From Octopus vulgaris (lineage: Eukaryota), in NCBI GenBank assembly GCA_951406725.2, contig OX597822.1, positions 47,430,001 through 47,494,000 of the forward strand: a stretch of DNA of 64,000 nt, given 5' to 3'. A program made the translations under genes and the position numbers. Of the stretch, positions 13,116 through 46,512 are shown piece after piece; within the stretch, counting starts at the first letter, position 1, and the number at the start of each line of letters is the position of its first letter. The notes below the pieces were generated by a model that saw only the letters and a program-made list of their open reading frames with translations, was not told where the DNA came from and did not search any database.

Positions 13116-13667
13116 AGGCATGTATGTATGTATGTATGTATGTATGTATGTATGTATGTATGTATGTATGTATGTATGTATGCATGCATGTATGTATGCG
13201 TGCGTGCGTGCGTGTGTGTGTGTGTATGTATGTATGTATGTATGTATGTATGTATGTATGTATGCATGCATGCATGTGTATGTATGTATGTATGCGTGCG
13301 TGCGTGCGTGCGTGCGTGCGTGTGTGTGTATGTATGTATGTATGTATGCATGCATGCATGTGTGTGTATGTATGCATGTATGTATGCATGCGTGCGTGCG
13401 TGCGTGTGTGTGTGTGTATGTATGTATGTATGTATGTATGTATGTATGTATGTATGCATGCATGCATGCATGTATGTATGTATGTATGTATGTATGTATG
13501 TGTGTATGTATGTATATATGTATGTATGTATAGGCGTAGGAATGGCTGTGTGGTAAGTAGCTTGCTTACGAAGCACATGGTTCCGGATTCAGTCCCACTG
13601 CGTGGCACCTTGGGCAAGTGTCTTCTACTATAGCCTCAGGCCGACCAAAGTTTTGAAAGAAACCCGT

Positions 13668-13726
<59 letters not shown>

Positions 13727-13928
13727 GCAATAATAATTCTCTAAAAGGAATATAGACAGTAACTGCTCGACAACATAAGGGACTAAAGCCATCTGAATAT
13801 GGCTAGGGACAGGGCAGGGTGGTGGGGGTGTTACTGTTGCATTTAGCCCCAGGCGAACATCGACGTCACCAGAAAGGCTCGACACCGTCACGGTGCCCTA
13901 AACCTGCAAAGGGAGGTAATTCCCCGAT

Positions 13929-14002
13929 GAAGCGGAAACCACACACGGACCATGGTTTCAAGGTGTATTGCCTATCATCGGCGTGTGGTAGGCCTCCGCT
14001 TC
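13929..14002 (-). ncRNA. Type I hammerhead ribozyme, copy 1
   Basis: Reverse complement of the motif at 14750-14823. Confidence 0.8.
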
Positions 14003-14288
14003 CTCGACGAATTCTCTCTCTGCAGGATTTTCTTATATAGATTTTCAAGCAAAATACATTTGCTGATTTCGAAAATCTGTTCGAAAGCAATAATAATTCT
14101 CTAAAAGGAATATAGACAGTAACTGCTCGACAACATAAGGGACTAAAGCCATCTGAATATGGCTAGGGACAGGGCAGGGTGGTGGGGGTGTTACTGTTGC
14201 ATTTAGCCCCAGGCGAACATCGACGTCACCAGAAAGGCTCGACACCGTCACGGTGCCCTAAACCTGCAAAGGGAGGTAATTCCCCGAT

Positions 14289-14362
14289 GAAGCGGAAACC
14301 ACACACGGACCATGGTTTCAAGGTGTATTGCCTATCATCGGCGTGTGGTAGGCCTCCGCTTC
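14289..14362 (-). ncRNA. Type I hammerhead ribozyme, copy 2
   Basis: Same sequence as copy 1, 360 bp away. Confidence 0.8.
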
Positions 14363-14749
14363 CTCGACGAATTCTCTCTCTGCAGGATTTTCTTATATAG
14401 ATTTTCAAGCAAAATACATTTGCTGATTTCGAAAATCTGTTCGAAAGCAATAATAATTCTCTAAAAGGAATATAGACAGTAACTGCTCGACAACATAAGG
14501 GACTAAAGCCATCTGAATATGGCTAGGGACAGGGCAGGGTGGTGGGGGTGTTACTGTTGCATTTAGCCCCAGGCGAACATCGACGTCACCAGAAAGGCTC
14601 GACATTTAGTCCCTTATGTTGTCGAGCAGTTACTGTCTATATTCCTTTTAGAGAATTATTATTGCTTTCGAACAGATTTTCGAAATCAGCAAATGTATTT
14701 TGCTTGAAAATCTATATAAGAAAATCCTGCAGAGAGAGAATTCGTCGAG

Positions 14750-14823
14750 GAAGCGGAGGCCTACCACACGCCGATGATAGGCAATACACCTTGAAACCAT
14801 GGTCCGTGTGTGGTTTCCGCTTC
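14750..14823 (+). ncRNA. Type I hammerhead ribozyme, copy 3 (in the inverted unit)
   Basis: GAAGCGGA-GGCC-UAC-CACACG | CCGAUGA | U-AGG-caauaca-CCU-U | GAAA | C-CAUG-G | UC^ | CGUGUG-U-GGUU-UCCGCUUC. Stem I has 6 bp, an internal loop, then 12 bp. The core has U4>C. Predicted cleavage is after GUC at 14804. Confidence 0.8.
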
Positions 14824-15044
14824 ATCGGGGAATTACCTCCCTTTGCAGGTTTAGGGCACCGTGACGGTGTCGAGCCTTTCTGGTGACGTCGATGTTCGCC
14901 TGGGGCTAAATGCAACAGTAACACCCCCACCACCCTGCCCTGTCCCTAGCCATATTCAGATGGCTTTAGTCCCTTATGTTATATATATATATATTTATAT
15001 ATAAGCAAGCTACTTACCACACAGCCACTCCTACGCCTATACAT

Positions 15045-23717: not shown

Positions 23718-24849
23718 ACAAACAAGTTGGTCATAGGCATGAGGACGCTAATCAAAATATTTAATGCACAACGCCAAAAGTGAAAGTGTGCAAGGCCGAT
23801 AGCTTTATCATATCTTGTCAAAAAAAGTGAGAAATCTCATAGAATCGATGTAAATGTATTCAAGAAGCACCTGAATACATTATCATCTGCGATTCCGGAC
23901 AAACCAGCATCACAATAAGAAACGCAACTGGGGGGGGGGGGGGGCAGCGGCATCACTAAAAGTTAAAACCGAATCGCTGGATAGCACAATGAGATCACCG
24001 TCGTTGATTAACCGATAAATCAGTGTCAAGCCATCATATGATTCGACTTTCTAATGAGCCCTATAAAAAGAAATGTTTTTTGCAGCAACTTCACAATGTT
24101 GAGGCGGCCACTTTAACATCTCCATTCTCGTTTCATTCACCAGCCGTGCAGACAGAAGGCACAGGTTTTGCTGCCATGAATATAACACGATTATTTTCCG
24201 AGTTGTGATGGGCTAATCACAGACTGATACGTACTTGCTAGTTTGTCAAACCCCCAGTAGTATGTCTCACCAGCGTGTATAGATTTGTCGCTTTTATTTT
24301 TTATTCAAAGGTCAACACAGAACACACTACATGCAGTAAATAAGCTTCTGTTAACTGTTCGTGGGCGTTGTTGATCATTTTTACATGCAGCCTAGGAAGA
24401 CGTTTTCATTCTCCACCAACTTCACAAGCACAGCAAGACTTCCATGACAATATCAATACAAATATTTCTTTCTTTATTGCCCACATGGGGCTAAACATAG
24501 AGAGGACAAACAAGGACAGACAAAGGGATTAAGTCGATTACATCGACCCCAGTGCGTAACTGGTATTTATTTAATCGACCCCAAAAGGATGAAAGGCAAA
24601 CTTAACCGTTTATCTATAGAATTTGTCTTTGAAGGCGAAGTAGTTATTTTTCCAAGATGAATTGTAGCCTTTCTATCACGAATTCTTTTTTGATGCGATG
24701 CGGGAGTTCGTTGGCGTAATTCTATAGCCAGAATTGAATTACCTCTATTCCTAGGTTGTGAGGGATATTGGAATAGAGGTTGACTTCATCGAAGAATACT
24801 AGCAGGGTGTTTTTGTTTATTGTTTCAGGAAGGTGAAACAATAATTGAG

Positions 24850-25200
24850 GGATCAGAGTTCTTCAAACAGGGACACCGTTTCACAGTGAAAAGCAACTTC
24901 ATATATGTTTCGGAGGACCTGATATACGCACTAACCTGCTCTGGGTGTCAAGAGCAATACATAGGCCAAACAAAAAAAAAACAGTCTACGTAAAAGGATG
25001 GCTCTGCACAGATCCCAGATCAAAATTCCCCAAAACAGAAAAATAGAATTCAGCCAACACATCGACGTTTGCGCCAATAGCAAAAATCCCAAGCTTCAGA
25101 ATTTTTCCCCTCTACCAATTCAGGGACGATACAATCTGTAGCTAACGAATTAGTAAAGAGACTCTCTTTATTACAAAATACGGACCCCTTTTGAACGATA
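24850..25200 (+). mobile_element. Penelope-like element GIY-YIG endonuclease relic
   Basis: FTVKSNFIYVSEDLIYALTCSGCQEQYIGQT, then after a frameshift LRKRMALHRSQI. This is a GIY-YIG motif with the PLE-type CxxC. Confidence 0.8.
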
Positions 25201-42235: not shown

Positions 42236-44690
42236 GGATAGTGGAGGAGGAGGAAATAGAGGGGGATATAACATCACATGATATGGAAGACAACTGGAGG
42301 TTTCTACAGGACAACCTGCTGAGGGCCACGGACCAGATCTGTGGATAGTGCAAAGTCCCCTTTCGACCCAAGATAACATGGTGGTAGAACAATGTTGTTG
42401 CTAGGGCCATTAGGGAAAAGAAACAGGCTTGGAAGGACTGGAAGAATGGTGATAGCAGGGAATGGTACCAGACAGTCAGAAGGGAAGCTAGGATACAGGT
42501 TTATTTAGCCAGAGGGGAAGCAGATAAGAAAAAATTTGCCAATGTTCCACGCCATGAGGACCAAAGACTTACCAGAAATATAGCATTAGTGGTGCTTTTC
42601 CCTGGCACGAACCCAAACTGCATCTCATCTAAACTGATTCTCTCCCTAGTTAGTTGGGCTATGACCCTCTCCGTGACCTTCATTACAGGTGTAGCAGCAC
42701 CATAATCAACTGCTACAAAGGTAAAGGGCACGCTTTAGATACAAATAATTACAGAGGTATCAAGTTGTTGGATACCAGGAAAAGCACCACTGATGCTATA
42801 TTTCTGGTAAGACAGCTGCAGGAGAAATACCAAGCCAAAGATAATCCCCTGTACCTGGTTTTCGTTGACATGGAGAAAGCCTTTGATAGGGTCCCCCGAT
42901 CCCTTATCTGGTGGTCAATGAGGAAACTAGGTATAGATGAATGGTTAGTGAGAGCTGTGCAAGCCATGTACAGGGACACTGTCAGTAAGTTGAGGATTGG
43001 CAATGAGTACAGTGAAGAATTCCAGGTAGAAGTAGGGGTCCACCAAAGTTCAGTCCTCAGTTCCCTCCTATTTATCATAGTCCTCCAGGCAGTAACAGAG
43101 GAATTCAAGACTGGATGCCCTTGGGAGCTCCTTTACGCGGATGACCTTGCTCTAATTGCTGAGTCATTATCAGAACTAGAGAAGCTTCAGTTGTGGAAGC
43201 AAGGATTAGAATCGAAGGGCCTTCGAGTCAACCTAGCTAAAACCAAAGTCTTAATAAGTAGAAAGGCAGACAAACCACAAATCCCTTCAGGAAGATGGCT
43301 CTGCCCGATCTGTAGAAAAGGTGTAGGTAGAAATTCTATAAGATGTACCCAGTGTAAGCTATGGACACATGCGATGTGCAGCAATATCAAAGGAAGGCTA
43401 ACTAGGAAGATAGATTTTGTATGTGGCAGATGCTCAGGAGCAATAAACACTGAAAATGTGCAGAGAACAATTTCTGCCACATTCCAGGGAGAAAATCTAC
43501 AAGTAGTTGATAGCTTCGGTTACCTAGGTGACCAAGTCAGTAGCGGGGGTGGGTGTGCTGAAAGTGTAACTGCTAGAATAAGAATAGCCTGGGCAAAGTT
43601 CAGAGAGCTCTTACATCTGCTGGTGACAAAGGGCCTCTCACTCAGAGTAAAAGATAGACTGTATGCCGCATATGTATGAACAGCCATGCTACACAGCAGT
43701 GAAACATGAGCTGTGACTGCTGAGGACATGCGTAAGCTCACAAGGAATGAAGCCAGTATGATCCGATGTGTGTGTAACGTCAGTGTGCATACTCAACAGT
43801 GTTAGTACCTTGAGAGAAAAGTTGGACCTAAGAAGCATCAGATGTGGTGTGCAAGAGAGACGTCTGCGTAGTATGGCCATGTGGCGAGAATGGATGAGGA
43901 TAGCTGTGTGAAAAAGTGCCACATCCTACGGTTGAGGGAACCTGTGGAAGAGGTAGATCCAGGAAGACCTGGGATGAGGTGGTGAAGCGGGACCTTCGAA
44001 CATTAGGCCTCACTGAGGCAATGACTAGTGACTGAGACGTGCTGTGCTTGAGAAGACCCGGCAAGCCAAGTGAGACTATAACTCGTGGCCTATGCCAGTG
44101 GTGTAACCAGCCCACTTATGCGTACCTTTTTTTCATTGGACACTAAACTCTGCTTGTGAAGACCTGTTGAGGCAAGTGAAATTGAAATCGAAATCAAATT
44201 CGCTGACGTGGTGGATGACAACACTGGCTGACTGGCATCCGTGCTAGTGGAATGTTAAGAGCACCATCCAAGTGTGATTGTCGCCAGAGCCGTTGACTGG
44301 CTCCCATGCCGGTGGCACGTAAAAAGCACCATTCGAGCTTGATCGTTACCAGCGTCGCCTTACTGGAAGTTGTACGTGTGGCATGTGAAAAACAATATTC
44401 AAGCGAAGTCGTTGGCAGTGCCGCTGGACTGGCTCCTGTGCAGGTAGCACATAAAAAAAAACCTTTTGAGCATGGCCGTTGCCAGTTCCACCTGACTGGC
44501 CCTCGTGCTGGTGACACGTAAAAGCACCAACTACACTCTCGGAGTGGTTGGCGTTAGGAAAGGCATCCAGCTGTAGAAACTCTGTCAGATCAGACTGGAG
44601 CCTGGTGCAGCCATCTGGCTTGCCAGTCCTCAGTCAAACCATCCAACATATGCCAGCATGGAATGCGGACGTTAAAAGATGATGATGATA
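42236..44690 (+). mobile_element. RTE-type LINE, 5'-truncated and rearranged (RT ORF remnant 42654-43679, 3' UTR, (GAT)n tail)
   Basis: NYRGIKLL, FVDMEKAFDRVPR, GVHQSSVLS, LLYADDL, GLRVNLAKTK and FGYLG. Downstream YGHVARM. Stops after 43679. Confidence 0.92.
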
Positions 44691-45446: not shown

Positions 45447-46512
45447 TTCCCCAACCCTACCTTCCAACCTGGCTCATTCCTCTGCTCCCGCCCACGCTGT
45501 CGCACTTGCCCTTACCTCTCCAACACCACCTCCTCACCAGCACCCATCATCGACCCTATCGCATCACCGACTCCTTCACCTACACCTCCAGCAATATCAT
45601 CTATTGCATCTCCTGCTCTCTCTGCCATTCCCTCTACATCGATCAAACGGGACGCCGCTTGGCTGACCCGTTCGCGGAACACCTCCGAGACATCCGTCTT
45701 GGCAATGACATCCCGCTCCACCGGTCACTCTTTGCAACACCTGTCTGTGTTCGGATTGTCCTTGCACAGAGGCCATCCGGACTCCCGTTTGCGCTGTGAA
45801 CAGGGATTAATCTTCTCTCTTCGCTCTTTTACGCCATTTGGGCTCAACTCTCCTCCCCTCTTCATCTAACTTCCTCCCCTTGCCTCTCTCCCCCTCCCTC
45901 CTACTTCCTCCCACCCAACTCTCCTCTCTTGCCCCGACTCCTACTTCTCTTCACCCCTACTCTCTTTCCCTCTTCTCTCTTACTCTCTTTCTCTCTTCTC
46001 CCTCACTCTCCTTCTCTCCTCTATCCCCCTCCCTCCTACCTCGTCCCACCCAACTCTCCTCTCTTATCCCGACTCCTATATCTCTTCACTCCTACTTCTC
46101 TTCGCCCCTACTCTCTTTCCCTCTTCTCTCTTACTCTCTTTCTCTATTCTCTCTTTCTCTCTTCTCTCTTACTCTCTTTCTCTCTTCCCTCTTTCTCTCT
46201 TCTCTCTTACTCTCTTTCTCTCTTCTCTCCTCCTCTCTCTCCTCACATACCCACCTTACCCCCACAAGCCCACCCACCCCTACACATTCCTATTCCACCT
46301 TCCCTATCCTTCACACACCCTCTCCCACATACCCCACCTCTACCCCCACCCTCTGCCTACCCACTCCTTGTTTTTTCTGTGTCCCTTTCTGTAGAAGAGC
46401 GTAGGCTCGAAACGTAAAAGACTTTTTCTATTCCTGAGCGTTATACTAATACATCTGTGTGTTTTGTACACCACCTGTCTTCGTCTTTTGTTTTCTTTTC
46501 GTAAACTCTCCC
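45447..46512 (+). mobile_element. Penelope-like element 3' fragment: GIY-YIG, pyrimidine tract and pLTR-like end
   Basis: YRITDSFTYTSSNIIYCISCSLCHSLYIDQTGRRLADPFAEHLRDIR, then EQGLIFSLRSFTPFGLN. A hammerhead-like motif lies near the 3' end. Confidence 0.85.
46385..46420 (+). ncRNA. Variant minimal hammerhead-like motif at the PLE 3' end
   Basis: CUUU-CUGUAGA-A-GAGC-guag-GCUC-GAAA-CG-UA^-AAAG. Confidence 0.5.

Follow-up and report, generated by a model that had tools for sequence, protein, structure and literature searches.

A young, putative hammerhead retrozyme of Octopus vulgaris with the insertion footprint of Penelope-like elements

What kind of element is a non-coding unit of 360 nt that stands in the octopus genome in both head-to-tail and inverted copies, each full copy with a hammerhead fold, and how did it get there? 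The locus lies in a 64,000-nt stretch of Octopus vulgaris DNA (assembly GCA_951406725.2, contig OX597822.1, positions 47,430,001 to 47,494,000, forward strand), which we call the window. Positions are those of the window unless monomer positions are given; in the monomer, position 1 is the first base after the GUC triplet.

The array is enclosed by the two parts of a (TA)n target microsatellite (13701–13725 on the left, 14981–15001 on the right) and is built from two arms. Arm 1 (13726–14604, hammerhead sense on the minus strand) has an exact 360-bp period over 879 nt, or 2.44 head-to-tail units. Arm 2 (14605–14980, plus strand; 376 nt, 1.04 units) is inverted with respect to arm 1 and matches the unit's reverse complement without a mismatch. 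On the outside, arm 1 ends at 13726, or monomer 222, and arm 2 at 14980, or monomer 176; a 46-nt tail (13726–13771, minus strand; monomer 177–222) is present only at the outer end of arm 1, which we call the tail end, and is the best-conserved block in common with an older sister family. The arms meet at 14604/14605 (junction region 14597–14627), where monomer 64 is joined to 161 inside an 8-bp inverted repeat with a 15-nt loop. The copies of the unit in the window are identical, with zero differences. Their GC content, 46.9%, exceeds that of the 2-kb flanks (41.8% and 38.9%) and of the window as a whole (37.6%), a real but modest contrast. Six-frame translation of the circularised unit gave stops in all six frames.

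The sequence-only reading of this DNA had described an exact 360-bp repeat of identical, comparatively GC-rich copies, 2.4 direct and one inverted, with a type I hammerhead in each full unit, and each of these points was confirmed. Its inverted copy is indeed present; it is, however, not an oddity but the second arm of what we show below to be a standard insertion of the Penelope-like element (PLE) type.

Other repeats in the window were recorded as well. The array is flanked by two inward-facing heads of a common short repeat (13533–13660, plus strand; 15003–15041, minus strand), which are 85% similar to each other and from which read-through transcription could start; we take this repeat to be a tRNA-derived SINE. 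Broken PLE fragments occur at 24650–25196 and 45459–45697. The 341-aa stop-to-stop frame at 42654–43679 (plus strand) is presumably a fragment of a LINE reverse transcriptase.

The hammerheads are found at 13929–14002 and 14289–14362 on the minus strand and at 14750–14823 on the plus strand, with predicted cuts 3' of C13948, C14308, and C14804, respectively. In the plus-strand copy, stem I is CACACG/CGUGUG, the core is CCGAUGA...GAAA, the GUC triplet lies at 14802–14804, and stem II (AGG/CCU) is closed below a U.U mismatch. Stem III has just 2 bp within the palindrome ACCAUGGU, through which two molecules are predicted to pair over 8 bp (−12.6 kcal/mol) and which would make the ribozyme capable of dimerization; a dimer arrangement through helix III is known for metazoan hammerheads (PMC4209133). 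The minus-strand cuts at C14308 and C13948 span exactly one 360-nt monomer, so that the release of such a monomer proposed from the sequence holds as a matter of geometry. The circular monomer folds with z = −4.5 relative to 100 dinucleotide shuffles; the MFE structure of the single sequence differs from the active hammerhead fold by 7.4 kcal/mol.

Genome-wide, the unit belongs to a family (family A) with at least 298 matches at 99–100% identity in the animal's own 2.8 Gb genome (40 of 816 candidates scored), and we estimate roughly 500–800 insertions. The longest arms among the 28 top-scoring arrays reach 14.7 units. The unit is thus not single-copy, and the many tandem copies that a genome-wide BLAST had been expected to return were found. 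The unit or a part of it was also present in 20 of 24 listed sequencing runs under several organism labels. The older sister, family B (L108–L137; 2,621 candidates, about 90% identity, mostly sub-dimer), has the tail, stem I, and layout in common with family A, together with the palindrome ACUCGAGU and the canonical core CUGAUGA. A common fold of the 3' domain is poorly supported, with covariation at only 1 of 13 pairs in 6 sequences. Contigs of further related families appear in runs X1, X5, and X6, where the 3' domain of the unit or the stem adjacent to the hammerhead matches and the sequence then diverges. Together, the data support the view that family A is a young, dispersed, non-coding tandem family that would work like a non-LTR retrozyme.

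The way in which the family enters the genome can be read from the ends of its arrays. We mapped 28 top-scoring arrays and 60 loci found by end patterns (55 on contig C1 and 5 on contig C2). Two arms joined head to head make up 21 of the 28 top arrays, and in 20 of these 21 one outer end lies at 218–223 and the other at 174–178; the exception, L037, has ends at 221/158 and a non-TA site. Thirty-two contig-C1 loci had been picked by one end only; 23 of them are two-armed, and the free end is of the other type in 22 of the 23 (at 210–222 or 166–176, read by eye through subfamily mismatches; exception L141). The remaining 28 end-pattern loci, chosen by known end positions, were excluded from this count. 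Combining both sets, 42 of 44 two-armed loci end at about 222 on one arm and about 176 on the other, and none of the 44 has the same end type on both arms. The inner ends of the arms are variable, the outer ends fixed. Pattern searches of the genome returned 439 junctions of the tail end with TA and, on the forward strand, 275 junctions of the no-tail end with TA, with 0 matches for the reversed-pattern controls in either case; the 540 reverse-strand no-tail matches list most places twice and were not used as a count. Flanking duplications of 12–15 bp are seen at the non-microsatellite sites L033, L037, and the family-B locus L120. Family B obeys the same two-end rule, and its second arm ended at a single fixed position in all 4 cases.

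A tail at one end, an inverted truncated second arm, and an AT-rich or (TA)n target form the insertion footprint of PLEs, and all three are observed here. In PLE insertions, one end bears a tail of 30–40 nt and the element is accompanied by an inverted copy that lacks its 5' part (10.1101/2021.04.23.441226), and the tail is the interval between two internal RT start sites on the RNA (PMC11167929). The PLE protein of Anolis nicks AT-rich DNA and extends both target strands (PMC11167929). Hundreds of young family-A insertions resolve this signature of two start sites to the base, which allows the RNA positions 176 and 222 and the (TA)n target to be named.

The genome also contains autonomous elements with similar ends. 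A young, often intact, Neptune-like PLE family (L088–L104, L107) encodes a 781-aa protein with RT and GIY-YIG domains, preceded by an overlapping 479-aa ORF with no convincing Pfam match. Its copies end in (TA)n, with or without a tail of about 38 nt; two clear inverted pairs (L093, L095) have one end of each type, and in a third pair (L107) one end has the tail and the other lacks both the tail and a directly adjoining TA run. Scans of the 3' end of this family found no hammerhead. Because the two-armed footprint of the retrozyme matches the PLE tail, and because the autonomous 781-aa family is alike in this respect, PLE double priming is the likely origin of the arrays.

We also looked for a direct partner. 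None of 100 PLE loci (the 781-aa Neptune-like family, L105, smaller GIY-YIG families, and one Penelope/Poseidon-type family; scored from the top 150 of 6,136 and 130 of 28,890 candidates) contains the unit or its tail domain according to blastn and a tail-domain profile; the matches at these loci are separate retrozyme copies only. One of them, a 47-nt match beside the L105 PLE, was rejected as a partner link, being an independent family-B insertion. No PLE protein match is attached to any of 87 arrays. For comparison, pLTR homology to a resident PLE is described for 24 of 57 retrozyme families in Xenopus (10.64898/2026.07.22.740005).

Several features of the PLEs themselves were noted during this search. 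The element at L105:3012–6192, a Neptune-like PLE truncated at its 5' end, stands in (TA)n and has an inverted arm of 775 nt; its terminal repeat has a hammerhead-like motif, found with a regular expression, with the core CCGAAGA (also U4C), other copies having CUGAAGA (L061). The broken fragments in the window match the 781-aa and L105 proteins by tblastn. At L149 (about 330–355), a family-A insertion in (TA)n directly follows the tail of an L105-family PLE, which points to shared target use. The Penelope/Poseidon-type family (L194:2476–3414; L198–L227) is very abundant (28,890 candidates); its 3' UTR runs into long TA/TG-rich low-complexity sequence, and in one subgroup two in-frame TAG stops are common to many copies.

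Three other origins of the two-armed arrays can be weighed against double priming. Perfect inverted repeats can be artefacts of assembly, and insertions of this kind are hard to assemble (10.1101/2021.04.23.441226), so that a collapsed or chimeric inverted repeat comes to mind; yet the same asymmetric design recurs at dozens of loci with different subfamily variants, and the unit is present in other runs and under other organism labels. The chance of an artefact is therefore negligible, which also settles the corresponding doubt raised with the sequence-only reading. Solitary pLTR-like insertions might also have expanded into arrays on the spot through unequal crossover, with palindromes formed later, a route suggested for retrozymes in 10.64898/2026.07.22.740005. 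This would account for the homogeneity within arrays as concerted evolution and for the mostly sub-dimer state of the older family B. We regard it as very unlikely for family A, whose arrays are dispersed over many contigs at 99–100% identity, have fixed outer ends with random inner ends, and carry the same private variant on both inverted arms.

An inverted arm could also arise from one priming at the tail end, after which the cDNA folds back and is copied. Arm lengths are correlated (rho = 0.58, 40 loci), the arms of 11 of 43 two-armed C1 loci stop within 15 nt of each other, L033 fits such a course, and the junction in the window lies inside its 8-bp inverted repeat. A fold-back copy, however, cannot outrun its template, and in 20 of the 43 loci the no-tail arm extends past the tail arm by over 15 nt (the tail arm is ahead in 12), which contradicts fold-back for these 20; arm lengths were entered by hand, with ten two-junction or single-end loci simplified or omitted. 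Single-armed insertions with only the no-tail end also occur, and the Anolis protein extends both strands (PMC11167929). Two primings thus fit best, fold-back being improbable as a general explanation, and the correlation of arm lengths would also fit two RTs acting as one complex. For PLEs at large, family A suggests that inverted insertions form by two primings.

Which RNA was copied is a separate question. We lean slightly towards a single monomer circle as the template of the long arrays, the alternative being an uncleaved linear multimer, and both likely occur. A circle is favoured by the 57 of 95 arms that cross the predicted cut site and by arm lengths of up to 14.7 units. The ends of the arms show no pile-up at the cut site, which counts against the model; the cut site as an RT barrier was rejected, since there is no sharp peak and truncation is broadly raised over positions 1–120. 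Also in favour of a circle, eleven variants each occur in every unit of a single array, most of them on both arms, and are absent from the other 87 loci. A>G changes in the hammerhead sense account for 5 of these 11 array-wide variants versus 4 of 72 singletons (Fisher p = 0.0015), an excess that would fit A-to-I editing of one template molecule, although the numbers are small. Because "private" was judged on 88 of several hundred loci, unsampled homogeneous source arrays would mimic such variants; recurrent editing on different backgrounds was not seen among the variants compared.

The competing reading keeps the PLE double priming and assumes that the template is always an uncleaved linear multimer read from existing arrays, with a nearly inert hammerhead and no circles. 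This is a serious possibility, though on balance we doubt it. The core of family A is never canonical, and uncleaved RNA is the main in vitro substrate of the Anolis PLE (PMC11167929). At L033, the same mosaic order of variants is repeated in register in both arms, which counters a circle there because a monomer circle cannot give a mosaic order; a "mirrored" unit at L193 was rejected as a second mosaic template, its variant recurring at an unmirrored register. The unit assembles as one closed 390-nt contig in 3 of 4 sequencing runs guessed to be RNA, but such contigs arise equally from tandem DNA or RNA, and among the listed runs with the unit none is recorded as RNA, the 14 RNA labels being guesses, so that we do not take these contigs as a sign of transcription. 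Against an exclusively linear template, variants fixed across both arms need a one-unit bottleneck (L050, 9 of 9; L045, 6 of 6), the A>G excess is concentrated in array-wide variants, a daughter array could never become longer than its source, variants within an array mostly lack a mirrored counterpart in the other arm (61 lack it, 7 have it), and the hammerhead stems and palindrome are maintained. Of the original proposal of a recent integrant of a 360-nt ribozyme circRNA, the young, dispersed, retrozyme-like insertion with Penelope-type marks stands, and the circular template is retained with only slight preference.

The ribozyme itself departs from the canonical form. Family A does not have the canonical core CUGANGA...GAAA...UH: its majority sequence CCGAUGA carries U4C relative to CUGAUGA. 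A check against hammerhead models went against the original expectation, as Rfam gave no hammerhead match for the unit at gathering score, nor at E ≤ 10. Exact 31-nt patterns count 1,184 CCGANGA and 142 UUGANGA cores genome-wide (1,326 in total), with 0 UCGANGA and 0 CUGANGA in family A, the latter also with a 19-nt pattern. The second state, UUGANGA, is C3U with G8 kept. Within the family, variation of the hammerhead is seen at the free N7, the centre of the palindrome (AT to TA together), and core positions 3–4. Each of the states CCGA and UUGA is one step from the canonical core of family B, from which we infer two independent losses.

The stems remain paired. Across 11 sequences drawn from the two families, pairing holds in 97% of cells. 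Both partners have changed in 3 of the 13 pairs, of which one lies in stem II and two in the palindrome; none of 500 shuffles reaches this score, and slid controls drop to 10–57%. The covariation that had been named as a test is thus present between the families, and it represents few independent events because the 11 sequences are related and come from two families.

Two ideas about the core were discarded. U4C does not appear to trap an inactive hairpin, as the gap between the active fold and the MFE is similar across core types (CC 7.4, UU 7.1–7.9, canonical 4.9–6.9 kcal/mol). The missing stray CUGANGA revertants do not prove selection either: 1.4–2.7 would be expected among 1,184 young units, with a probability of 0.07–0.26 for zero. 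This absence being non-significant, only the missing amplified canonical lineage is informative.

The core change has a precedent in viroids, where the identical U4C "considerably decreases activity in vitro" yet permits infectivity in vivo (PMC3088659); in contrast to that variant, U4C is here the majority state of a genomic retroelement family and stands beside C3U. Eight of nine predicted Xenopus retrozymes showed no in vitro cleavage (10.64898/2026.07.22.740005). As a speculation that we consider rather unlikely, the lineage may have been selected for a throttled ribozyme: a slow cutter would persist as a closed circle for so long that a Penelope-type dimer, primed by both cut DNA strands, could travel round it, U4C and C3U would each have spread while the canonical core left no copy, and each array would preserve in DNA a single RNA molecule together with its A-to-I edits. 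Family A offers a natural test of whether selection tunes the cleavage rate, and a family that amplifies only with non-canonical cores would escape strict hammerhead descriptors.

Overall, we conclude with good confidence that the locus in the window is a recent insertion of a non-coding 360-nt non-LTR retrozyme, likely pasted into (TA)n by a borrowed Penelope-like RT/endonuclease with one priming per cut DNA strand. The unit would be transcribed as multimers; no promoter was identified for it. The hammerheads would cleave slowly, likely as dimers via the palindromic helix III, and a host ligase would close the monomers into circles. A PLE protein, probably dimeric, may then bind the 3' domain (about 85–222) and nick both strands of an AT-rich target, one cDNA starting at 222 and the other at 176. 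Both cDNAs would read across intact cleavage junctions, each for a different distance, before their ends are joined in the middle.

Non-LTR retrozymes are a known kind of element in metazoans (Cervera & de la Pena 2020, PMC7229834) and have been proposed to derive from PLEs as non-autonomous elements (Li, Clavereau & Pollet 2026, 10.64898/2026.07.22.740005). PLEs are called "a strong candidate" for their return to DNA (PMC7229834), and the mechanisms are said to "remain to be elucidated" (10.64898/2026.07.22.740005). Our literature search, which covered main texts and few subscription papers, found neither a description of a retrozyme from an octopus or other cephalopod nor one of retrozyme insertions with two arms, and the main text of the 2026 O. 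vulgaris repeat annotation has no mention of ribozyme or retrozyme (PMC13282606).

Compared with the EN+ PLEs (Anolis Poseidon PAc, Frangieh et al. 2024, PMC11167929; Penelope/Neptune/Naiad, Craig et al., 10.1101/2021.04.23.441226), family A likewise has a tail at a single end, a second copy that is inverted and truncated at its 5' end, copies in tandem, targets that are AT-rich or (TA)n, and a hammerhead upstream of the RT start region. It differs from them as described in having no ORF (neither RT nor GIY-YIG), a tail of 46 nt rather than 30–40, arms that can both be long multimers, and a hammerhead of canonical architecture rather than a minimal one. The non-autonomous MRC1-type elements of Chlamys have 3' ends resembling those of their autonomous partners and lack canonical hammerheads (10.1101/2021.04.23.441226), whereas family A has a hammerhead and no partner similarity was found at the 100 PLE loci.

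Set beside the metazoan retrozymes as described, family A is distinguished by its CCGANGA or UUGANGA core, never CUGANGA, and by two-armed insertions with PLE tail ends, the word "inverted" occurring 0 times in the main text of PMC7229834. Its GC content of 46.9% versus less than 45% (PMC7229834) is a marginal difference, descriptive rather than mechanistic; no pLTR homologue was found among the 100 PLE loci searched, and self-cleavage and RNA circles are here predictions. The likenesses are a non-coding tandem unit within 170–400 nt (350–390 in mussel; PMC7229834), one type I hammerhead per unit, a highly paired monomer, and PLEs in the same genome. The axolotl HHR_Amex2, by its description, has the very layout of family A, with a 2-bp helix III with tetraloop and a U.U mismatch at the base of helix II. 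Taken together, the sequence features mark family A as a genuine and young retrozyme, of a kind already known, whose insertions bear the footprint of PLE double priming and whose cores are without exception non-canonical.
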